From: an uncultured Candidatus Saccharibacteria bacterium
GTDB lineage: Bacteria > Patescibacteriota > Minisyncoccia > 2-02-FULL-40-12 > GWA2-44-9
DNA: 64,000 nt
Direction: 5' to 3'
NCBI GenBank assembly: GCA_964356795.1
Contig: CAYHIK010000001.1
Location: forward strand, 3,111 to 67,110
Below, in pieces: positions 6,143 to 36,004 of this stretch. The notes under the pieces were generated by a model that was not told the origin of the DNA, did no database searches, and was given only the letters and a program-made list of their open reading frames with translations. The stretch's first letter is position 1. Each line of letters opens with the position of its first letter. A program made the translations under genes and the position numbers.

Positions 6143-7284
6143 CGCAACATGAGTTCGAACACAACCCCCGCAAGGAATATCAACGCGAGGCACCAGACGA
6201 GAAGTGACGGGATTGGAATATTAAACTCTGGTGTCCGCAAACGATTCTTGCGCGAGCGAACATACGCAATCAACACCAGCACCGACTGAAACCCGATAGC
6301 AACCGCGCCCACCAATCCAATGACATCGATAAAATTCCGAAGACCGCTCACGAACATGAGCAATGGCGGTACGAGGGTTAACATCCACGCGTGAATCGGT
6401 CGAATACGGTAATCGCGATGAAATGTTTCAAAGAGTGCAGTACCTAATAATATGTAGGACGTTGTCATGGTCAGCAGTCCAAGACATGAGCCGAGGATGA
6501 TAACCGGCATCCCAAATGTCCCAAAAAGTCCTGCGAATGATTCGGGCGATGTGATGTCGCCACTAATACCCACAATCGTAAATGCGAAGATAAGGTACAA
6601 CACTGCAACAATCGAAACTGCCGTGATAATCGCGGGTCGCATTAAACGCTCACGACCAGAAAGCAACTCGCGCTGCAATGGAATAGCCGACATGCCTGCA
6701 AATGCAAACAGGAGCACGCCATACGGAAGATGCCAATACTCTGGCGTCCACGCAGTGATGTGATCCCACTGGATATGCGGGAATCCAATCCCGGCAATCA
6801 CTGCAATGATAGACGCATACAGTCCAACCAGCACAATCTCAAACACCGCCATCGTGCGAAGGCGTATAAACCACATCAGCGACAACATGGATGCGAAGCC
6901 GATGCTGTACCACTGGGGATTAACTGCGAGAAACTGGGAAAGCACGTTGTGGAGAAATTCTCCTGAGACAATCATGTATGCGAGGAGCGCCCCGTACATA
7001 CTGATAAGAAGCGCGCACGTCATGAGCGCGCGGCCAAGAGGACCAAGCCAAATATTGATATATCCCACGACCTGATGGGTACCGGGCGATGATAGCACCA
7101 GCTCTGCAAACACAAGATCGAATAAAATCACGATAAGGGCCAATCCGACGAGCCAGGCGGTACCAACCCAAAAACCGGCCTTTGCAAATGCGAATGGAAT
7201 TCCAAAGATTCCAACGCCAACCATCGTGCCCACGAGCACGGCAGTCGCATACACAAACTTTCCATCACGTAGGATGCCTCGCAT
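6139..7284 (-). CDS. amino acid permease (Trp/Tyr/Ser-type HAAAP/AAT family)
   Basis: N-terminus MRGILRDGKFVYATAVLVGTMVGVGIFGIPFAFAKAGF, and about 11 TM segments. The track ORF begins at TTG 7314; an ATG at 7284 is preferred. Confidence 0.5.
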   Translation of the reverse strand: MRGILRDGKFVYATAVLVGTMVGVGIFGIPFAFAKAGFWVGTAWLVGLALIVILFDLVFAELVLSSPGTHQVVGYINIWLGPLGRALMTCALLISMYGALLAYMIVSGEFLHNVLSQFLAVNPQWYSIGFASMLSLMWFIRLRTMAVFEIVLVGLYASIIAVIAGIGFPHIQWDHITAWTPEYWHLPYGVLLFAFAGMSAIPLQRELLSGRERLMRPAIITAVSIVAVLYLIFAFTIVGISGDITSPESFAGLFGTFGMPVIILGSCLGLLTMTTSYILLGTALFETFHRDYRIRPIHAWMLTLVPPLLMFVSGLRNFIDVIGLVGAVAIGFQSVLVLIAYVRSRKNRLRTPEFNIPIPSLLVWCLALIFLAGVVFELMLR

Positions 7285-7327
7285 TCTGCTATTGTACCCC
7301 GCGCATTCGTACAATACAAAAGAGTCG

Positions 7328-9685
7328 CTACTTCTTACGAGTTACTGAACTCTTCAGTGCGTGCTTTAGCACATCATCCATGGTAGACACGGGAATGAAG
7401 GTCAGTTTTTGCTTTGCCTCCTTTGGCATATCCACGAGATCCCGCACATTGTCGGCAGGAATAAGAATAGTAGAGATACCCGCACGTAATGCCGCAAGCG
7501 ACTTTTCCTTTAATCCTCCGATAATCGTAACCTTTCCACGAAGGGTAACCTCACCTGTCATAGCAACTTTGCGATGTACGGGAGTTTTCGTAAACAATGA
7601 AATAAGCGCGGTCGTGAGGGCGATGCCAGCTGAAGGACCATCCTTCTTAATCGCGCCCGAAGGCAAGTGAATATGGAGATCCTCCTTGCCCATATCCACC
7701 TCGATACCCTGCTTTGCCACGTATGCACGAGCATAGGAAAGCGCTGCTTGAGCTGACTCTCGCATTACATCGCCAAGTTGACCTGTGAGGATGAGTTTTC
7801 CCTTACCTGGCATGCGAGCGACTTCAATAGGAAGGAGCTCTCCTCCCACGGGTGTCCACGCGAGACCCATAGCCATACCGACTTGGTCTTTCGATTCAGC
7901 AGCATCGTGGACAACTTTTTCAGGTCCGAGCATCCGCTCAACATCACGCACAGTCATCTTCACCTTTGTGGTCGGCGTGTTCGTCTCCACGAGCTTACGT
8001 GTGACCTTACGAGCAAGCGTCCCAATGAGGCGCGCCAACTCGCGCACACCCGCTTCGCGTGTATACTCGCGAATCACCGCGAGCAACACCGAGTCAGCGA
8101 AACGAACTTGGCCCTTCTTGAATCCGTGGTCAGCGAGAGCGCGAGGGACGAGAAATCCTTTTGCGATGGAAAGTTTTTCAGATTCGGTATATCCAGGAAA
8201 ACCAATAATCTCTAAGCGATCGCGGAGTGCGGGCGGAATAGTCTCAAGTGAGTTTGCGGTTGCAACGAACAGTACATCGGAAAGATCCAGTGGCATCTCG
8301 AGGTAATGATCGGAGAACGCGTGGTTCTGCTGTGGGTCGAGCGCCTCAAGAAGTGCGGAGCTTGGATCGCCACGAAAATCCATACCAAGCTTATCGATTT
8401 CATCCAGCAAGAACACGGGGTTCTTCACCTTGGCCGTGTGAATACCCTGCACGATTCGTCCCGGCATTGCGCCGACGTACGTCCTTCGGTGTCCCCGAAT
8501 CTCTGCCTCGTCACGCATACCACCAAGCGATACACGCACAAACTTTCTGCCCAATGCACGAGCAATGCTTTGCCCAATACTCGTCTTCCCTGTTCCGGGA
8601 GGTCCATAAAAACAAAGGATGGGTCCCTTTAATTTGCCGACCTGTTTTTGAACAGCAAGGTACTCGAGAATGCGGTCCTTTACCTTTTCCAATCCTGCAT
8701 GATCTTCGTCTAGGATTTTCTTGGCGCGCTTGAGTTCGATGACATCTTTCGTTGACGTCGTCCAGGGCAATTCAACAAGCCAGTCGAGATAGGTGCGTAC
8801 ATAGGAAACCTCTGGGCTCATTGGTGGCATCTTGGTGAGCCGATTGAATTCTTTCATCGCCTTTGCGTGCACCGATTCGGGCATCTTCGCATCATCAATT
8901 TTCTGCTTGAGCACATCGAACTCCTCGCGCTCATCATCAACACCGAGCTCCTTTTCGATGCTCTTGAGTTGCTCGCGGAGGAAGAACTCTTTTTGCATGC
9001 GTCCAATTTTCTTTTTGGTTTCTCGGGCAAGATCTTTTTCCGCTTCGAGCACTTCCATTTCACGAGAAAGGTGCACGTTGAGTTGACGCAATGCGTCACC
9101 ATGATCGCGCATCTCCAAGATATCCTGCTGTTGGCGGACGTCGAGATTTAAATTTGCCGCCACCAAGCCAATCACCTGCTCGGTGTCGCGGAGCTGTGTC
9201 ATAAGATATACCACCTCCGGCAAAATCGCGGGGAATGAACGTACATCGGCAATGTGTTTGAATTGTTCTAAGACACGACGAAGAAGCGCCGCATTCTCCG
9301 CGCTATCCATACGATCATTTGCAATAATCGCCTCCGCCTGTACCTGGATGTAGGGCACAAATCCGAGGTATTTTGTAATGCGGGCGCGACTCACGCCTTC
9401 GACATCAACCTTGGCACCACCGTCAGGTAAGCGAAATACTGAGATGATCTTGCCCACGGTGCCGACTGAAAAGAGGTCATCTTCACCAATTTCATCCTCT
9501 ATGTTCTTTTGCGTCACAAAAAGCACCATGCGGTCGCCCGCAAGGGCTGCCTCCATAGCGGCAATCGATTTTGATCGTTGCACAATCAATGGAATCACCA
9601 CTTTTGAGAACAACACCGTGTTCTTAAGGGCGATAAGGGGAAGCTGTTCGGATGAGGAATGTTGTGTTGGTTGTGGTTCGTTCAT
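7328..9685 (-). CDS. lon: ATP-dependent Lon protease
   Basis: Lon N-terminal domain, an AAA+ Walker A (GPPGTGKTS) and Walker B (DEIDKLG). The S16 domain carries the catalytic Ser in PKDGPSAGIAL. 785 aa. Confidence 0.9.
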   Translation of the reverse strand: MNEPQPTQHSSSEQLPLIALKNTVLFSKVVIPLIVQRSKSIAAMEAALAGDRMVLFVTQKNIEDEIGEDDLFSVGTVGKIISVFRLPDGGAKVDVEGVSRARITKYLGFVPYIQVQAEAIIANDRMDSAENAALLRRVLEQFKHIADVRSFPAILPEVVYLMTQLRDTEQVIGLVAANLNLDVRQQQDILEMRDHGDALRQLNVHLSREMEVLEAEKDLARETKKKIGRMQKEFFLREQLKSIEKELGVDDEREEFDVLKQKIDDAKMPESVHAKAMKEFNRLTKMPPMSPEVSYVRTYLDWLVELPWTTSTKDVIELKRAKKILDEDHAGLEKVKDRILEYLAVQKQVGKLKGPILCFYGPPGTGKTSIGQSIARALGRKFVRVSLGGMRDEAEIRGHRRTYVGAMPGRIVQGIHTAKVKNPVFLLDEIDKLGMDFRGDPSSALLEALDPQQNHAFSDHYLEMPLDLSDVLFVATANSLETIPPALRDRLEIIGFPGYTESEKLSIAKGFLVPRALADHGFKKGQVRFADSVLLAVIREYTREAGVRELARLIGTLARKVTRKLVETNTPTTKVKMTVRDVERMLGPEKVVHDAAESKDQVGMAMGLAWTPVGGELLPIEVARMPGKGKLILTGQLGDVMRESAQAALSYARAYVAKQGIEVDMGKEDLHIHLPSGAIKKDGPSAGIALTTALISLFTKTPVHRKVAMTGEVTLRGKVTIIGGLKEKSLAALRAGISTILIPADNVRDLVDMPKEAKQKLTFIPVSTMDDVLKHALKSSVTRKK

Positions 9686-9711
9686 ACAAATAAGGTGACG
9701 TTCTAGCGTGT

Positions 9712-9740
9712 CACTATACCATATTTCTCATATTTTGCAA
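9712..9740 (-). promoter_or_regulatory. sigma70-like promoter upstream of lon (TTGCAA-N17-TATAGT on minus strand)
   Basis: Reverse complement of 9712-9740 reads TTGCAA-17 nt-TATAGT, about 25 nt upstream of the lon ATG. Confidence 0.4.
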
Positions 9741-9751
9741 TGATTTCATCT

Positions 9752-9784
9752 AAAAAAGCCCTGTGCGTTATTCACGCACAGGGC
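9752..9784 (-). terminator. rho-independent terminator for the GC-rich gene 9807-10253
   Basis: Perfect 10-bp stem (gccctgtgcg / cgcacagggc) with a 7-nt loop, followed on the minus strand by a U6 run. Confidence 0.65.
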
Positions 9785-9806
9785 ACCAGAGATGGAGTCG
9801 AGGAAC

Positions 9807-10253
9807 CTAACTTGCACGCGCCAGGGCGGGGTCGTTGGGACCGAAGTCGTAGCCCAGCCAGCCGTAGTTCGCGCGCCACCTGCCGCCGCTCCAGTACAGA
9901 CACCGGACGCACGGGTCGCCATCGGAATCGCGGTAGATGGTGCCCCAGAAGAACACCGCCTTGCCCTTCCAGTCATCGGGGACGAGCTTGGGATGAGCCA
10001 GCAGGTAGTCTAGAGCGTTAGCGGGGAGGATGGGCTGGGACTTGAGCTCACGACGGAGGTTGTTGCCCACGACGAGCCTACTGCCCCGCTGCTTCTTGGA
10101 CAGGCGGAGCTTCACCCTGGTGGGGTCCCAGGTGAAGATGCCCTTCACTCGATTGGGGAGCTGGTCCTCTTCGTGATAGCTCCAGCCGTTGGGAATGAAG
10201 GGAAGGGCGTCGCAGTCAATGGCGTACCCACCATCGAACATCAAATCGCTCAT
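9807..10253 (-). CDS. hypothetical protein, compositionally atypical (high GC, Trp-rich C-terminus)
   Basis: ATG at 10253 (MSDLMFDGGYAIDCDALPF...) with an AAGGAG SD 7 nt upstream. The gene is clearly more GC-rich than the flanking genes, with GC-ending codons, and has its own terminator. No recognisable family. Confidence 0.5.
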   Translation of the reverse strand: MSDLMFDGGYAIDCDALPFIPNGWSYHEEDQLPNRVKGIFTWDPTRVKLRLSKKQRGSRLVVGNNLRRELKSQPILPANALDYLLAHPKLVPDDWKGKAVFFWGTIYRDSDGDPCVRCLYWSGGRWRANYGWLGYDFGPNDPALARAS

Positions 10254-10324
10254 AGTCAACTCCTTGGAACGAACACACCTACGCGATGTATTATGCCACA
10301 AATAATGTAGATGTACAAGAATCG

Positions 10325-11692
10325 CTACAGCTCAAATGATTGGCCCATATGGGGCACGATTGCGTCGACGCCAAGCTCCTGATGGGCGCGGTCCGCGAGT
10401 GCTTGGGAAGCTTCTGCCTCACCTTGGACGACAAAGCACTTCTTGAGCGTATTCCCTTGGTTTGCCTGTCGAATGTACTCCATGAGACCGTTTTGATCGG
10501 CATGCGCGGAGTATGCCCCAATCGAGGCGACATGGGCGCGGACCGGGACCTGCTCTCCAAGAATGCTCACCACCTTCTCACCGTCTTTGATTCTGCGTCC
10601 AAGCGAACCTTTTACCTGGTATCCGATAAACAAAATTGTATTTCGATTATCAGGAAGGTATCGACGCTCGTGATGCACGATACGACCACCCTGGCTCATA
10701 CCTGCGCCCGCGATAATAATCTTTGGAGCGGGAATACTATTAATTCCCTTTGATTGTGCGACCGCGGGAGTAAACGTGAGCCATGGGAACTGGAAGATTC
10801 CCCTGTTGTCACTGAGGAGCTCGCGAGCTTCTTCATTGAAGTACCGAGAAAATTTTCCATACTCTTTGGTAATCTCAATCGCAAGCGGACTATCAACGAA
10901 TACGGGCATGCGCGGAAGCTGTCCGGCTTCGAAGAGTGTGTCGAGCTCGAGCATCAGCTCTTGGGTTCGCTCAATAGCAAACGATGGAATCATCAGCACT
11001 CCCCCTCGTTCGTATGTTTGTAGAATTGTGTCGAGAAGTATCTGCCGCCGCTCACCGCGCGCCTCATGGAGACGATTGCCGTAGGCAGATTCAACGAGCG
11101 CATAGTCAACACCGCGCACGTAATCGATGTCGTGCAGGAGTGTGGATGGCGGATTTCCAATATCTCCCGAGAATAAAATTCGCTGTGCACGACCCTGCTC
11201 TTCGACGATGAACTCCCATGCGGTTGAGCCAAGCACATGGCCCGTGTCGTGCCCAATCATGGTCACCGCATGGTTGAGTTTTATTTTTTGACGATACGGG
11301 ACACCACGGAAAAGACTCACCGCGCCATCAAGGTCGTTGCGATCATAGAGCGGAGGCACTCCATGTGAACGCGCCTCAGATACAATCTTATCCAGCGTAT
11401 CGGGAAGCGCGGCAGCAACGATACCAGCGGTGGGCTCTGATGTGTAGATAACCCCACGGAATCCCTCACGATACAATTTTGGAATGCGACCCGTGTGATC
11501 GACGTGACTGTGTGTAATACACACATAGTCGATGGTCGCCGGATCGTACCCGAACTCATCGTAGTTCATCTCATCGTTATACCGAGAACCCTGAATCATC
11601 CCGCAATCAACGATGATGCGAAGCCCACCCGCTTCGAGTAAATAATTTGCTCCTGTCACGTATGCTGCGCCGCCAAAAAATGTAAGCTTCAT
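10325..11692 (-). CDS. MBL-fold beta-CASP family RNA-metabolising hydrolase (COG1236/RNase J-like)
   Basis: HSHVDHTG (the HxHxDH motif) in an N-terminal MBL domain, followed by a beta-CASP/RMMBL-like C-terminus. 455 aa. Confidence 0.65.
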   Translation of the reverse strand: MKLTFFGGAAYVTGANYLLEAGGLRIIVDCGMIQGSRYNDEMNYDEFGYDPATIDYVCITHSHVDHTGRIPKLYREGFRGVIYTSEPTAGIVAAALPDTLDKIVSEARSHGVPPLYDRNDLDGAVSLFRGVPYRQKIKLNHAVTMIGHDTGHVLGSTAWEFIVEEQGRAQRILFSGDIGNPPSTLLHDIDYVRGVDYALVESAYGNRLHEARGERRQILLDTILQTYERGGVLMIPSFAIERTQELMLELDTLFEAGQLPRMPVFVDSPLAIEITKEYGKFSRYFNEEARELLSDNRGIFQFPWLTFTPAVAQSKGINSIPAPKIIIAGAGMSQGGRIVHHERRYLPDNRNTILFIGYQVKGSLGRRIKDGEKVVSILGEQVPVRAHVASIGAYSAHADQNGLMEYIRQANQGNTLKKCFVVQGEAEASQALADRAHQELGVDAIVPHMGQSFEL

Positions 11693-31635: not shown

Positions 31636-33111
31636 CTACTCTGCCTCATCGAGCTTTTCACGAGACTTGCGGGGCTTCTGGGAGGCGAGCCAATCGCGGA
31701 GGAGCATCGTGGCGCGTACATCGTCTTCGTTGTAGCGAATGATTCTATCAAGCGATGCGCGATCCCCCGTGCGAAGCCACGTGTCGTACCATACGACAGA
31801 CTCCGCTCCGCCCGCCTCCGAATCTGCCCATGCATACCCAAGATACTTTGCCACATCTTTCAATGTATAGAAGTAGAGCGGAAGCACTACGGAATCAATC
31901 GTCTTCTGGTGGAGATCAACCGAGTGTTCGTGGAATTTCTGCACGAGATGCGATGGCGCACCGTGGCGCTGTGCGAGACGGTCAAACACCATCTTTTCAT
32001 AAAACGCATAGTGATAAATCGCAAAATTCTCCCACCCTGCGAGCAGGTCGAGGAATTTGCCCCACATCACGGCTTCATCTTCGGGCTTTTCTGCAATCAG
32101 CGTAGAGTAGGTCACGGCACCAGACGCAGTATCGCGAATCAAAAGCCCAAGCAAATAATCGACGTCGCGCGTCGGATCAGATTCAATATCGAAGAAAATT
32201 TCAGTGGCAACCTCGGGAAATGCCCCCTTTCGGATAATCTTTGGCTCTCCGCTCATGAGGACGCGCGCCTGATTCTGGAAACGGACAATCTTATCGTACG
32301 GCCAATCTTCAAATTTACCACGGAGATCGTCGGCATCGGCTTGTGCAAGGTCGGCAACCGTATGAATCCCAACGCTATACAAACGACGCTGATCGGCCTG
32401 CGAGAGGCGATAGATAAGCGAGACGTCATTGCATCCTTCGGCACCCTCAAGGCAAAGCGAGTACCACGGAGTACGCTTACAGCTCGATTTCAAGAACGGC
32501 GCGGGCTTATCCCCCGATAAGATGCGCTCGATGTCTTCGCGCGTTGTGTGAAATTGCGAAATAAAATCCCCTACCAAAAACGAACGCTCATGGCCCTGTG
32601 GATCAATCACGTATGCCTCGGTCGGCCGCACACCCTGAATCTTCTCTAAAATCAAAGAATAGAACACGAGCGGAAACTTATGCTCATCTTTAAGCTCAAG
32701 ATTTCGCTGTACATCGTACGTGACATATTGAAAGTCCCCCAGCGTACTCTTCCCGGGTCGAGCTTCGAGTAAATCGGGCATCCCCACCCAATCTTCCGTC
32801 ATGAGCACACCGTGGTAAATGTTTTTCCCCTGCTTCATCAGCTCGAGCGTTGCCAAGTAGGCCTCTTCCAAGTCGCGATACTGCTCGGGCTTGAGTTCCT
32901 CGAACTTCTTATGCGCTCCAAGTGAGCCGACGGCATCCTGCATCTTACCTTTGTAGATAATATCCAGGAGTGGGGATGGCTCTTTCTTATGCGCGCTATC
33001 GGCGTAAATGTCGTACCAAATCCAATGCGGGCACTGAAAGAATTTATAGAAGTGCTGAGCGGTTAGTTTCTGTGTTGGTTCCATGGGGGCATTGTACCGT
33101 GCGCGCAGCAA
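31636..33111 (-). CDS. TM0106-family RecB-like nuclease (RNase H-like/YprB-type domain)
   Basis: 491 aa. The C-terminal region EIFFDIESDP...YHYAFYEKMVFDRL...YNEDDVRAT resembles the TM0106 putative RecB-family nuclease. Confidence 0.45.
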   Translation of the reverse strand: MLRARYNAPMEPTQKLTAQHFYKFFQCPHWIWYDIYADSAHKKEPSPLLDIIYKGKMQDAVGSLGAHKKFEELKPEQYRDLEEAYLATLELMKQGKNIYHGVLMTEDWVGMPDLLEARPGKSTLGDFQYVTYDVQRNLELKDEHKFPLVFYSLILEKIQGVRPTEAYVIDPQGHERSFLVGDFISQFHTTREDIERILSGDKPAPFLKSSCKRTPWYSLCLEGAEGCNDVSLIYRLSQADQRRLYSVGIHTVADLAQADADDLRGKFEDWPYDKIVRFQNQARVLMSGEPKIIRKGAFPEVATEIFFDIESDPTRDVDYLLGLLIRDTASGAVTYSTLIAEKPEDEAVMWGKFLDLLAGWENFAIYHYAFYEKMVFDRLAQRHGAPSHLVQKFHEHSVDLHQKTIDSVVLPLYFYTLKDVAKYLGYAWADSEAGGAESVVWYDTWLRTGDRASLDRIIRYNEDDVRATMLLRDWLASQKPRKSREKLDEAE

Positions 33112-33129: not shown

Positions 33130-34509
33130 TTAGAGGGCGGGTCGAACGACGGAGCACACGAAGCGGTCGCGGTGCAGATACTTCGCAGCAACCGCGCGAA
33201 GCATGCGATGTGTTACGCGTCTAATGTCATCGTAATAGGACGAAAACCGCGAAAGATCTTCATCTCCATTTGCGAGCGACATAAGGATACGGTCAGAGAG
33301 TGCACCCGGTGAGAAGCGATAGTGCTCGAGGAACAGATGCGCGAGGAAGAATGTTGCATCCTCGACATCCTCTTCGAGTTCGGAGCTAGGCCCCGAAACG
33401 ATATCGCTGATCACATCAAGCATTCGCTCGATGAGATACTCACAGTGAGCGCGATCCCCACGAGTTGCGAATTCAACGAGCATCACCCCGTGACTCGACG
33501 AACAGTCCCAGACAACATCGGAATGATAGATGCCACCGGGATGCACGAGGTTCCCCTCTCGAAGCGCCGCATCAATGCGATCCTTCAGGATGCCTTCGAG
33601 CACTTCGAGCGCGAATGCGTCTCTCGTACTAAAGGTCTCGGTCGGCCACAGCATGCACACGTGGTGCATCGTTGCACCGCTGCGGTCTGTAGTGATGCGA
33701 CGGATATCGGTGAGTACGGGCACATCATCCGAACGATTGTAGCTCCACGAAGTTGCGGGCCATGGTGGCAATTCATTCAAACGAGCATCACGCACCATCC
33801 GCACCGCGTCGTGCTGATTGGGGCCGATGAGCACCACACACATCGTCGCGGGCACACAGTTCACCTGCGCCCACTGCTTCATCGTTCCAACCTTCACGCG
33901 CGCCAGCTGTTCGGGATCAGAATCGCCCCAGTGCCGAGCAGGATTCGTCGTGTATAGCGCGCGGAGTGCCGCACGATACCCAGCCATGCCCGGCCATTCG
34001 TCGTTCAAGCCCGTCTCATTGTCGACTGCAGAACGTTCAACCGAAAGTGCACGGGCATTCACAATCGCATCGTCACGATTCCGCATGTCGCGAATATCGT
34101 ACATTGCATCGCGCACCATGCCAGCCATGATTTGGAACACTTCGTTCCGATGGCGTGCATGGAACAAATCCTGATGACCGTATCCCGTATAGCTATGCTC
34201 GGTGTGCACGTTGATGCCCGAACCGCTCGACCCACCGAAGTATCGACGGAACATGCGGTCAGCCTGACGAGCGCTAATCGGTTGCGGTCGTTCCGGGTAT
34301 CGACGCGCCCAGCGCGCAACGACTCGTGGTGACGCGCCACGGCAGAACAAATGCTCAACCGCATGCGCCATCCCGATGAACGACACAGGATCGTTGCGGG
34401 TCCCCCGCAAAAATCCAACCTGTGATGCGCTCAGAAGCCTATTGGAAACATTCACCAGTCTGACGCCGTTTTCGAACAGCGTAATGACGGGCGGGTTCTT
34501 ATCCGCCAT
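33130..34509 (-). CDS. M16-family zinc metallopeptidase (insulinase/pitrilysin-like)
   Basis: Inverted zincin motif HAVEHLFCRG (HxxEH). ATG at 34509 with an AAGGAGGTG SD 7 nt upstream. About 460 aa. Confidence 0.6.
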   Translation of the reverse strand: MADKNPPVITLFENGVRLVNVSNRLLSASQVGFLRGTRNDPVSFIGMAHAVEHLFCRGASPRVVARWARRYPERPQPISARQADRMFRRYFGGSSGSGINVHTEHSYTGYGHQDLFHARHRNEVFQIMAGMVRDAMYDIRDMRNRDDAIVNARALSVERSAVDNETGLNDEWPGMAGYRAALRALYTTNPARHWGDSDPEQLARVKVGTMKQWAQVNCVPATMCVVLIGPNQHDAVRMVRDARLNELPPWPATSWSYNRSDDVPVLTDIRRITTDRSGATMHHVCMLWPTETFSTRDAFALEVLEGILKDRIDAALREGNLVHPGGIYHSDVVWDCSSSHGVMLVEFATRGDRAHCEYLIERMLDVISDIVSGPSSELEEDVEDATFFLAHLFLEHYRFSPGALSDRILMSLANGDEDLSRFSSYYDDIRRVTHRMLRAVAAKYLHRDRFVCSVVRPAL

Positions 34510-34598
34510 AACGCTCACCTCCTTCAGATGAGAAAGAACGATGGAACGACAATAAAGAAAAAACCCATCCGCCACAAGAGCGAATGGGTATCGACTGT

Positions 34599-35186
34599 TT
34601 AGTCGAAGCAGAGATACATGAGGCGATAATTCGAGTACTCCCAATCGCCGTCATCGTAGTCGTAACGGTCGGCGGGTCTCCGATTCGTCGGAACCCAGTA
34701 CCAGCCACATCCGACGTTCGGACGATACCAGTACGGCCAGTAGAAGCTCACCCACGAAGAACGGTCGTAGTGCCAGAGCCGATAGTGCGGACCGAAGTTG
34801 CGTCCGTAGAACCGGGTCCTGCCGTACCAATCGGCGCCACGATACGAGCGAGGGAAGCGATACCAGCGGCCCCGGTCAGGACGCTGATAGTTCCTCCAGT
34901 GATACTGATCATATCGATTGCGATCATCGCGACGGTCGTACTGCCCAGGACGCGGATGACGGTCCTGTGCGCCACGACGGTCTCGCTCGCTCTGTGCGCG
35001 AGGCACTGCACGGTTCGACGGTGGCGCCTCGTGAGCTCGCTCGCGGGGCTGAGCCTTCCGCTCGCGATTGCCATCGCTCGAACGCGGCCTGCCCTGCTGC
35101 TGTGCGTTTGCGGCGGTACCCGTACACCACAGGGCAGTGAGTACCACGAAGAACGCGATGAGCAGAATGCGTGTTCTGCGTCCCAT
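34599..35186 (-). CDS. secreted low-complexity Arg/Asp/Tyr/Trp-rich protein
   Basis: Strong AGGAGG SD 6 nt before the ATG. Sec signal peptide MGRRTRILLIAFFVVLTALWCTGTAANA-QQ. The mature region is dominated by R, D, Y and W in RY/WY-type repeats. Confidence 0.6.
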   Translation of the reverse strand: MGRRTRILLIAFFVVLTALWCTGTAANAQQQGRPRSSDGNRERKAQPRERAHEAPPSNRAVPRAQSERDRRGAQDRHPRPGQYDRRDDRNRYDQYHWRNYQRPDRGRWYRFPRSYRGADWYGRTRFYGRNFGPHYRLWHYDRSSWVSFYWPYWYRPNVGCGWYWVPTNRRPADRYDYDDGDWEYSNYRLMYLCFD

Positions 35187-35236
35187 GCGAATCCTCCTAA
35201 CAAGGAAAAGAACAACGCCTACATTGTAGCACTAAG

Positions 35237-35692
35237 TCAAGCGGTTGCAACACGCCCCGGCACCGAAACGCTTGGGTATCGCTTCACCTCGTGCTTCGGT
35301 ATAAACGACTTCAAATACCTTCGCTGTGAAGCGGAAAACTGCCGGACGAGAATTCCCTCAATAGAAAGGATGGAACGCTCCCCGGCGCGAGGGAGAATGA
35401 CATGCGCAAGCTCATGAATGAGTGTCTCAACCTCGTCATCCCGGCAGCGATGCGTGTTTTTTGCTGGATTTATGAGGATTTGCACCCAATTACCCGATGG
35501 GTGGATATCAGGGTCCATAAGGCCTCGAATGACCTTACGATGTGGGTCGTCGGGGTTCACTAGGCGCTTCTTTCGGGAGATTTTCACACGCTCGCTCCGA
35601 AGTACCACCACGAATTGCCTGAATACCCAGTCAACAAGCGCATCACCGCTTCTCGGTAGACTTGTCATGTATTTTGATGCAGCTCGTTTCAT
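35237..35692 (-). CDS. small putative zincin-like metallopeptidase (HExxH)
   Basis: LIHELAHVILP motif in a 151 aa soluble protein, in the same operon as the M16 peptidase. Confidence 0.35.
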   Translation of the reverse strand: MKRAASKYMTSLPRSGDALVDWVFRQFVVVLRSERVKISRKKRLVNPDDPHRKVIRGLMDPDIHPSGNWVQILINPAKNTHRCRDDEVETLIHELAHVILPRAGERSILSIEGILVRQFSASQRRYLKSFIPKHEVKRYPSVSVPGRVATA

Positions 35693-35815
35693 GGATTTGG
35701 AGGGTGTAGCTGCGGCATGGTATACGGCTCCTGGGTTCTTCGCAACCTTGACCTATAGGCTCGATTTGTGGCATGAAAAAACACCCTCACGGGTGCTTTT
35801 TCATATCCGCCAGAA

Positions 35816-36004
35816 CTACATCTGCATTTTCTTCTGACCCATCACCTGATAAATCGCTGATAATGCCACGAGCGCATACAATACGCGCGCGAGGGTGAGG
35901 CCGAGGTATTGCCCGACACCGAGACCGAACAACACGAGACCCCAGTTGAGGCCACCGATCACCAACAGCCAAAACGTTACTTTATTGAGATTCACATAAA
36001 TCAC
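35816..36004 (-). CDS. DUF378-family small membrane protein
   Basis: LLVIGGLNWGLVLFGL, the DUF378 signature, in a 62 aa two-TM protein. Confidence 0.55.
   Translation of the reverse strand: MIYVNLNKVTFWLLVIGGLNWGLVLFGLGVGQYLGLTLARVLYALVALSAIYQVMGQKKMQM

Follow-up and report, generated by a model that had tools for sequence, protein, structure and literature searches.

Organisation of the locus

The stretch of 64,000 nucleotides (nt) analysed here, called the window below, carries on its minus strand a row of four co-directional genes. They encode a DUF378 protein, a small protein with a HELAH motif (the HExxH protein), a 195-residue protein rich in arginine, aspartate, tyrosine and tryptophan, and a peptidase of family M16. 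The 195-residue protein and its family, named RDYW throughout, are the main subject of this work. Following the minus strand, the genes are found at positions 35816-36004 (DUF378, an open reading frame (ORF) of 62 amino acids (aa), or 59 aa according to gene callers), 35237-35692 (HExxH protein, 151 aa), 34599-35186 (RDYW) and 33130-34509 (M16, 459 aa, the long ORF ending at 33130), and they are followed by a gene of 491 aa at 31636-33111. An initial annotation of this DNA had placed the same genes, with DUF378 as a possible fourth, in the same direction at the same positions, and all four ORFs were recovered. It had also read them as an operon in which the M16 enzyme acts on its secreted neighbour. 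The observation was largely correct; the functional pairing of M16 with RDYW is unsupported by the results below.

Transcription signals at the gene junctions

The terminators and promoters described here are sequence predictions, all on the minus strand. Between RDYW and M16, a terminator scan detected an intrinsic-terminator-like hairpin of 11 bp followed by a T-tract (34553-34589). A hairpin with T-tract was present in 12 out of 12 orthologous RDYW-M16 spacers, where the stems co-vary and the loop is usually CTTGCGG. A second terminator-like hairpin, GCACCC-GTGA-GGGTG followed by six T, was read from the sequence directly past the DUF378 stop (35775-35797); the terminator scan had flagged it on the opposite strand. 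Its equivalent, again a hairpin and a T-tract, was found in 12/12 orthologous DUF378-HExxH spacers. Having its own terminator-like hairpin, the DUF378 gene appears to be transcribed apart from the three that follow.

Upstream of the HExxH gene we inferred a promoter-like element, TCAAGGTTGCG-N16-TATACCAT (35717-35751), and TCAAGGTTGCG...TATAC[CG]AT is kept in most orthologous DUF378-HExxH spacers. Ahead of the RDYW gene, the promoter scan returned the promoter-like site TTGCAA-N16-(TG)cTACAAT (35223-35250). An extended -10 (TGnTATAGT) occurs at the same place in loci L006, L013 and L014, and less exact versions are seen in L015, L018 and L049; in the loci with an extended -10, RDYW directly follows HExxH. 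The very strong AGGAGG Shine-Dalgarno (SD) sequence mentioned in the initial annotation was indeed found at 35193-35198, 6 nt ahead of the RDYW ATG at 35186. With terminators after DUF378 and after RDYW, and promoter-like sites before HExxH and before RDYW, the four genes look like separate transcription units, contrary to the operon that had been proposed.

Several further features of these spacers were recorded. The HExxH gene has no recognisable SD, and CCCTCCAAATCC stands before its ATG (window 35693-35751). The spacer from the RDYW terminator to the M16 start (34510-34562) is conserved among orthologues as TTTCTTTAT.GT...CGTTCTCTAACAA..GAAGGAGG, although the M16 proteins are only 30-55% identical, and may contain a promoter or 5' leader element. 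Searching Rfam over the locus gave only a chance-level match (E 0.2) and none for the 34510-34562 spacer. The published metatranscriptome tables of Yanofskyibacterium list a DUF378 gene for PMX_810_sub and an M16B gene for a Minisyncoccus genome (PMC10936435), and no entry of these tables could be mapped to the present locus.

The RDYW gene and its family

An ORF of 277 aa runs antisense to the RDYW gene on the plus strand (34584-35417). It has no family match in Pfam or NCBIfam and had been considered a shadow ORF in the initial annotation, a view that the comparison of orthologues confirms. No orthologue has a break in the sense ORF, whose alignment contains invariant W, C, P and Y positions, and the codon-aligned antisense frame is interrupted in 4 of the 10 orthologous genes (L006, L013, L014, L015), which is the opposite of an unconserved R/Y/W ORF facing a conserved plus-strand one. 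In the close pair L015/L016, the dN/dS ratio was 0.23 for the whole RDYW gene and 0.095 for the C-terminal domain. That the RDYW ORF might be a compositional artefact, with the plus-strand ORF or neither strand coding, is suggested by the several open frames across this GC- and Arg-codon-rich stretch, but this idea is vanishingly improbable and effectively excluded by these conservation patterns and by the SD, start codon, terminator and signal peptide of the gene.

A word-indexed search returned nine RDYW homologues at 35-44% identity. When 1.84 billion cluster representatives were searched with an RDYW profile, only 36 matches were obtained, 28 of them at 1e-10 or below. The family is well delimited and orphan, with about 30 clusters out of 15 billion proteins and no Pfam, NCBIfam, PADLOC or PHROG match. 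The identical 195-aa protein was found on Hainich groundwater contigs (well H41, 0.1 µm fraction). A scan of GTDB genomes with patterns from the RDYW alignment gave no confirmed locus. Because a scan of GTDB genomes anchored on the neighbouring RecB-like gene did recover RDYW loci, this negative result reflects a failure of sensitivity and not the absence of the family. A second RDYW copy was searched for in the 64-kb window and none was found. The GC content of the window is about 52-53%, with a local peak of 0.66 within the RDYW gene, and reaches 60-69% in L005, L010, L011, L017, L049 and L067, which belong to the same Yanofskybacteria subclade. Values of 60-69% appear high for Patescibacteria.

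Architecture of the RDYW protein

Residues 1-28 (35103-35186) form a predicted signal peptide, MGRRTR / ILLIAFFVVLTALWC / TGTAANA followed by Q. The Sec/signal peptidase I (SPase I) signal was judged by rule (hydropathy and the -3/-1 rule) and not by SignalP. The n-region MGRRTR, the 15-aa hydrophobic core (mean Kyte-Doolittle value 2.85) and the ANA ahead of Q at -3/-1 all fit an SPase I substrate of the Sec pathway, as the initial annotation had recognised, the export itself being predicted. The cleavage region is kept across the family as xxA before Q[DE], and the AlphaFold2 (AF2) model shows a helix over residues 3-28. We also considered a lipoprotein and rejected it, no lipobox [LVI][ASTVI][GAS]C being present: the conserved Cys of the signal peptide is preceded at -1 by W or F, and at least 8 members have no such Cys.

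The mature protein is made of about 167 aa with a pI of about 10.1 and contains (in %) R 20.5, Y 11.4, D 9.6, P 8.4, G 7.2 and W 6.0. It had been described as consisting almost entirely of R, D, Y and W in RY/WY/DR repeats; these four residues amount to 47.5%, Tandem Repeats Finder returned no tandem repeat, and enrichment is limited to the dipeptides DR, WY and YD, where it is modest. Two parts can be distinguished. The first, from about residue 29 to 95 (34902-35102), is a polycationic half predicted as disordered (pLDDT below 50 for residues 38-88). Its first 70 mature residues contain 26% R, with a pI of about 11.3, and near its N-terminus it bears a degenerate motif, [AR]xPR, which reads AKPR in most homologues; it also contains the motif RHPRP. 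In the 30-sequence alignment A3, R76 is invariant and P78 nearly so. The second, from about residue 96 to 195 (34602-34901), is an aromatic, beta-rich C-terminal domain with the signature FYWPY..GCGWYWVPT..YLCFD-end.

Read along the alignment of 30 sequences, the signal peptide is followed, directly past the predicted cleavage site, by AQ[DE][RH]AKPR, then by a variable R/Q/P/D-rich linker and by the motif A[EQ]RRHP[RQ]PD, which is duplicated in some members. The conserved C-terminal region comprises DRFPRxY, YRGxxFGPHYRLWY, FYWPY.Y.P..GCGWYWVPT.R and, at the extreme C-terminus, YW.Y.DY..YLCFD, and contains the two invariant cysteines of the family, C160 and C193. In the AF2 model the first half is disordered and the beta domain confidently predicted, and its comparison with the PDB gave no structural match for the C-terminal domain.

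By analogy, RDYW resembles RcnB/YohN-like and YXWGXW-repeat proteins, in which a signal peptide, a charged low-complexity linker and a W/Y-rich C-terminal module are likewise combined. The RDYW profile has a weak match, P0156 (E 9e-4), whose C-terminus we take to be RcnB-like. Unlike these proteins, RDYW matches no Pfam family, its motifs are FYWPY, GCGWYWVPT and the terminal YLCFD, and its predicted fold is without a PDB relative.

The M16B peptidase

The most likely start of the M16 gene is the ATG at 34509, behind the SD GAAGGAGG (34517-34524). The resulting protein of 459 aa begins with MADKNPPVITLFENG, which corresponds to the start of the catalytic domain. An overlapping TTG at 34644 is an unlikely start. 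The HxxEH motif reported initially is the inverted zinc motif HAVEH at residues 49-53 (nt 34351-34365), in which H49, E52 and H53 are invariant in 17 orthologues, as are E158 and E165 of the distal E(x6)E helix VERSAVDNE. The protein matches PF05193 (M16_C) above the cutoff, with an E-value of about 1e-6 (8.6e-7 to 1.1e-6). Its N-domain is below Pfam detection, but 10 of the 17 orthologues match PF00675 and 15 match PF05193, so that the two-domain organisation M16 + M16_C is recognised at the level of the family. The closest PDB sequence matches are the Sphingomonas M16B subunit 3amj/3ami (4.5e-6) and BH2405 (3hdi). The initial annotation had asked whether the peptidase is secreted: judged by rule, none of the 17 orthologues exhibits an N-terminal hydrophobic segment or signal peptide, and the enzyme reads as cytosolic.

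In prokaryotic M16B enzymes, two subunits of ~50 kDa assemble into a clam shell, which is thought to act as a "peptidasome" for peptides of up to ~70 residues, natural substrates being known for only a few of these enzymes (PMC12731061, a 2025 review). The window protein shares with the BH2405/YmxG-type homodimer (3hdi) and with SPH2681/2682 (3amj/3ami) the size of ~50 kDa, the two domains, HxxEH + E(x6)E and the lack of a signal peptide. It differs by its strong divergence, with an N-domain undetected by Pfam, by a distal Glu located 112 residues past the motif against ~76 usually (PMC12731061), a longer spacing that we attribute to insertions, and by the identity of only 25-55% between alleles at this locus in otherwise close genomes. 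As no second M16 gene is adjacent, a homodimer can be inferred. Most simply, M16 is a cytosolic clam-shell oligopeptidase that merely occupies the slot after RDYW.

Distribution of the genes and the variable island

The scan of GTDB genomes anchored on the RecB-like neighbour yielded 66 loci, all from metagenome-assembled genomes of Candidatus Yanofskybacteria or other Paceibacteria/Patescibacteria. The distribution described below is based on a tblastn table over 70 related loci, on ORF inspection and on contig look-ups. The order DUF378-HExxH-[transmembrane (TM) protein]-RDYW-M16-RecB-like was found only in a subclade in which the RecB-like protein shares 72% or more identity with that of the window. 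In 11 more distant Yanofskybacteria loci, an M16B gene (24-34% identical) lies 0.5-3 kb upstream of the RecB-like gene without RDYW, HExxH or DUF378, so M16 is conserved without these neighbours, an observation that the initial annotation had named in advance as one that would refute its reading. L039, alone among these 11, has an analogous small secreted protein beside M16B.

The initial annotation had suggested looking for R/Y/W-type secreted proteins next to M16 genes elsewhere, and such neighbours exist: beyond the analogue in L039, RDYW is followed directly by M16 in 13 related loci, and by a TM gene and then M16 in L049. RDYW is also followed by other genes, namely a JAMM/MPN protein (L007), a metallophosphatase (L079), a TM protein (L078) or an unrelated gene (L008). 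L012 and L068 keep HExxH and exhibit a TM protein and JAMM but neither RDYW nor M16, and L011 and L049 have RDYW and M16 but no HExxH. Since RDYW, M16, HExxH, TM and JAMM genes occur in such differing combinations, the parts of the locus appear to assort independently. On either side of the variable stretch is a highly conserved gene, HExxH at one end and the TM0106 RecB-like gene at the other.

Compared with L006-L019, L049, L067 and L078-L080, the stretch from HExxH to RecB-like (33130-35186 in the window) has the aspect of a variable island containing a TM protein, RDYW, and M16B or JAMM in differing combinations. M16 alleles are 25-55% identical between genomes whose flanks are 80-90% identical. 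A JAMM/MPN protein of ~200 aa sits in the M16B slot, directly upstream of RecB-like, in L012 (8256-8861), L068 (6467-7144) and L007 (605-1213); it bears the motif HSHPHP..S..D and matches Prok-JAB at 6.4e-5, just under the Pfam cutoff. The variable slot was also considered as a defence island and rejected, the only signals being the weak JAB match of the L012 JAMM and a Cas4-like PD-(D/E)XK signal in the RecB-like nuclease.

In more distant Yanofskybacteria, small secreted proteins of an analogous kind are encoded near M16/RecB-like (L039, 8373-8852; L040, 9314-9880; L019, 7996-8328). They exhibit a signal peptide, an R/Q/P-rich linker with AVPR or RRHPRPD and a W/Y-rich Cys-Cys loop, CVPG[HY]W..WV.G.C, and are possibly remote relatives of RDYW. 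The CVPG[HY]W..WV.G.C loops of the L039 and L040 proteins extend the analogy with YXWGXW proteins.

Evolutionary rates and co-variation

Identity to the window protein ranged from 72 to 89% for RecB-like, 61 to 82% for HExxH and 68 to 79% for SecA, and from 28 to 42% for RDYW and 24 to 55% for M16. RDYW evolves an order of magnitude faster than its neighbours. Individual pairs illustrate how the two genes behave. In L015/L016, HExxH is 98% and RecB-like 99% identical, RDYW 73% and M16 100%; in L009/L080 the flanks are 85-87% identical, RDYW 56% and M16 31%; RDYW and M16 are 51% and 27% identical, respectively, in L013/L014, and 50% and 74% in L013/L015. Clustering of the M16 sequences produced several deep lineages discordant with the flanks.

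Over 55 locus pairs, which are non-independent so that p-values are nominal only, the identity of RDYW correlated with that of RecB-like (Spearman 0.59) and not with that of M16 (Spearman 0.08, and -0.006 once the flank signal was removed). RDYW tracking RecB-like and not M16, we conclude that its divergence, though rapid, follows that of the genome, whereas the peptidase slot undergoes exchange. As far as sequence divergence can tell, this pattern is the opposite of that of a dedicated enzyme-substrate pair. The synonymous divergence between L015 and L016 (region 7100-11500) was 0.08 for M16, 0.50 for RecB-like and 0.66 for RDYW, an approximately eight-fold span, and therefore indicates mosaic recombination.

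A candidate membrane-anchored partner in related loci

A TM-protein gene adjoins RDYW in nine distinct loci (eight full-length and one partial). Its product of 160-220 aa has a transmembrane helix at the N-terminus, then a linker rich in A, P and Q and, as its C-terminal part, a conserved region, ...PL.GW.DQP.K..PG...C...C. The stop of the TM partner is 3-13 nt from the RDYW start in L009, L011, L017, L067 and L080; a homologue is located just upstream of RDYW in L005 and just downstream in L049 and L078. In L018 (7369-8451), the TM partner and RDYW are fused in frame into one ORF of 360 aa, with loss of the RDYW signal peptide. We searched the 64-kb window for a TM partner and found none. This gene order and the fusion suggest that the TM protein is the usual partner of RDYW in most relatives, the two acting together at the cell surface with the TM protein as membrane anchor.

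The HExxH protein, DUF378 and the flanking genes

The HExxH protein (35237-35692) is represented by 112 homologue clusters, none of them named and none below 50% identity. The zincin motif noted initially (HELAHV) is well supported: H93, E94 and H97 of HELAH, together with E105 and E112, are invariant in 41 homologues. In the AF2 model (pLDDT 82.5, pTM 0.78), the helix that carries the invariant HExxH packs against a small sheet, and a ligand helix follows further along the chain, as predicted for a zincin fold. Comparison of the protein gave values of 6.5 for CapP, 6.1 for YbeY-like, 5.3-5.6 for minigluzincins, 5.2 for Wss1, 5.2 for ArdC, 4.9 for IrrE and 4.7 for Spartan. Two assignments were tried and rejected: SprT-like/Wss1 (PF10263), with 13.7 bits for a cutoff of 25.6 and no third His, and the aKG-HExxH peptide beta-hydroxylase (TIGR04267), with 16.4 bits for a cutoff of 40 over the HExxH region only. 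A PDB sequence search with the protein gave nothing.

With the minigluzincins (projannalysin, proabylysin, selecase), IrrE/CapP and Wss1/SprT, the HExxH protein would share an HExxH helix after a small beta-sheet, followed by an invariant-Glu helix, in ~100-150 aa. It differs from these minimal zincins by the lack of sequence-level membership, of the third His and of a DNA-binding or helix-turn-helix extension, and its family, confined to one Yanofskybacteria subclade, is unusually conserved: its identity across the subclade (61-82%) equals that of SecA (68-79%). No signal peptide was found in it. On the basis of the model, the protein is a cytosolic minimal zincin, very conserved.

The DUF378 assignment of the initial annotation (35816-36004) holds, with a match to PF04070 at an E-value of 4.9e-8 (33.2 bits for a cutoff of 25), and the protein resembles members of that family in being small and hydrophobic. 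It is present in all loci of the subclade, with 48-66% identity. The 491-aa protein encoded beyond M16 is a TM0106-family RecB-like nuclease (NCBIfam, 5.5e-99), and its gene (31636-33111) is the most conserved of the region, with up to 89% identity across the subclade. A TACAAT at 33085-33094, only ~6 nt ahead of the RecB-like ATG, suggests a leaderless or near-leaderless mRNA. In the neighbouring genes, Pfam detected GpsA, Maf and an RNase_H_2 domain.

Interpretation and alternative readings

The overall picture that we favour, at slightly better than even confidence, is that of four neighbouring, separately controlled genes of a Candidatus Yanofskybacteria (Patescibacteria) genome, with no peptidase-substrate operon, in which RDYW is a surface binding module. 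The RDYW gene would be a self-contained unit, with its own promoter-like site, strong SD and terminator. Its product would be exported by Sec and probably cut between A28 and Q29, leaving a disordered Arg-rich arm of ~65 residues and an aromatic beta domain of ~95 residues, presumably disulfide-stapled by C160 and C193. The protein may then stay at or near the cell surface, held by charge, or by the TM partner in the relatives. The polycationic arm would grip anionic envelope polymers, and the aromatic domain would contact a ligand on the envelope of the cell itself or of a host; for any specific ligand our confidence is much lower than for the overall picture. DUF378 would be an independent small membrane protein. 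Yanofskyibacteriaceae parasitise methanogens (Methanothrix) and highly express secreted proteins (PMC10936435), which makes a host-contact role for RDYW plausible.

Several points weigh against this picture. No hairpin was found at the HExxH-RDYW junction, so that HExxH and RDYW may be partly co-transcribed, and transcriptional read-through into M16 is possible. In 14 of the 18 RDYW loci, M16 is one of the two genes that come next after RDYW, and RDYW and M16 are jointly missing in L012 and L068, which is compatible with linkage, though adjacent genes are also co-lost trivially. In principle, RDYW could also be acted on by a cytosolic peptidase before it leaves the cell. As to the binding module, its function is deduced from composition and architecture, and its fold from an AF2 model built on 30 sequences. 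The L018 fusion is a single metagenome-assembled case that could come from an assembly or frameshift artefact.

A more specific scenario, which we hold to be unlikely in its entirety, would make RDYW and its TM partner a host-contact module of episymbiotic Yanofskybacteria. It would join a polycationic arm to an unseen, disulfide-stapled aromatic beta fold within a recombination-prone island exchanging M16B and JAMM peptidases, and these peptidases might serve quality control or self-protection.

RDYW could alternatively be a cationic Arg/Trp/Tyr-rich effector harming the envelope of a host or competitor, the cytosolic M16B or JAMM protecting the producer by degrading mislocalised or re-entering protein. 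The strongly basic and aromatic character of the protein (pI ~10) would suit such a role, as would its divergence well beyond that of the flanks (73% against 98-100% in L015/L016), its place in an island where M16B and JAMM alternate, the parasitism of Yanofskyibacteriaceae on methanogens with their highly expressed secreted proteins (PMC10936435) and the ability of M16 enzymes such as HrrP and RPP to degrade cationic peptides (PMC12731061). But the C-terminal domain is under purifying selection (dN/dS 0.095) and is a compact fold and not an amphipathic peptide, co-variation of RDYW with M16 was not found, searches of PADLOC and PHROG gave no similarity to known toxins or defence proteins, and the membrane-anchored partner and L018 fusion suggest retention on the producer surface. 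We therefore regard an effector as improbable.

The reading closest to the initial annotation is that M16 specifically processes or matures the adjacent RDYW, the two genes being one functional operon. In the window and 13 related loci, RDYW and M16 are neighbours with the same orientation, and both are absent in L012 and L068. There are also precedents: AlbE/AlbF (subtilosin) are M16B enzymes acting on nearby-encoded products, and some M16B, for example Rickettsia RPP, favour positively charged peptides (PMC12731061). The evidence of the preceding sections nonetheless makes such a pairing quite doubtful. A conserved terminator separates the genes in 12/12 loci, and the compartments differ, M16 having no signal peptide and RDYW a Sec-type signal (by rule). 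M16 is conserved without RDYW in 11 loci, and RDYW occurs without M16 in L007, L008 and L079. The pairwise divergences of the two are uncorrelated (Spearman 0.08), and M16 alleles are swapped while RDYW follows the genome.

The comparison with known systems leads to the same assessment. PqqF is an M16B enzyme encoded beside its substrate, in the case of pyrroloquinoline quinone (PQQ). What the RDYW-M16 locus has in common with AlbE/AlbF and PqqF is a peptidase gene beside the gene for a small exported or processed product. In contrast to those systems, it exhibits no modifying enzyme, leader-type precursor or heterodimer partner, a terminator-like hairpin stands between the two genes, and neither consistent co-occurrence nor co-variation was found.

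The initial annotation had further suggested that RDYW may be a nucleic-acid-binding or a surface-adhesive protein. In the former case it would bind extracellular nucleic acids, through Arg-phosphate contacts and Tyr/Trp stacking, and thereby aid DNA/RNA scavenging by a nucleotide-auxotrophic Patescibacterium. The composition of the protein agrees with this, and in Yanofskyibacterium both ComEC and pili have been found important and strongly expressed (PMC10936435). However, no competence or pilus gene is linked to RDYW at this locus, the family is limited to a small subclade whereas DNA uptake is general, and the PDB comparison gave no fold similarity to known nucleic-acid-binding domains, so that we attach a low probability to this role.

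Finally, RDYW as the precursor of a bacteriocin or of a ribosomally synthesised and post-translationally modified peptide (RiPP) matured by the metallopeptidases, as the sub-threshold TIGR04267 match of the HExxH protein (16.4 bits for a cutoff of 40) and the M16B enzymes of some such clusters (PMC12731061) might suggest, is very improbable and effectively excluded, since RDYW, at 195 aa, begins with a Sec signal where such a precursor would have a leader peptide, the neighbourhood encodes no radical-SAM enzyme, cyclase, transporter or further modifying function, HExxH and RDYW are independently distributed (only RDYW in L011 and L049, only HExxH in L012 and L068) and terminators separate the genes.

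Significance

Had the pairing held, it would have provided a rare bacterial M16B with a known natural substrate; the evidence says otherwise. The locus also calls for caution, as tightly packed co-directional genes of Patescibacteria can each carry their own promoter and terminator, so that adjacency alone is weak evidence for an operon. What remains is an orphan family of predicted exported proteins, restricted to one Yanofskybacteria subclade, with a predicted domain that resembles no structure in the PDB. Since Patescibacteria genomes abound in uncharacterised secreted proteins, the finding is a modest one. As relatives parasitise methanogens, and as host recognition is most obviously sought among surface or secreted proteins that evolve fast, the RDYW family is a reasonable, if unproven, target for binding and localisation studies.

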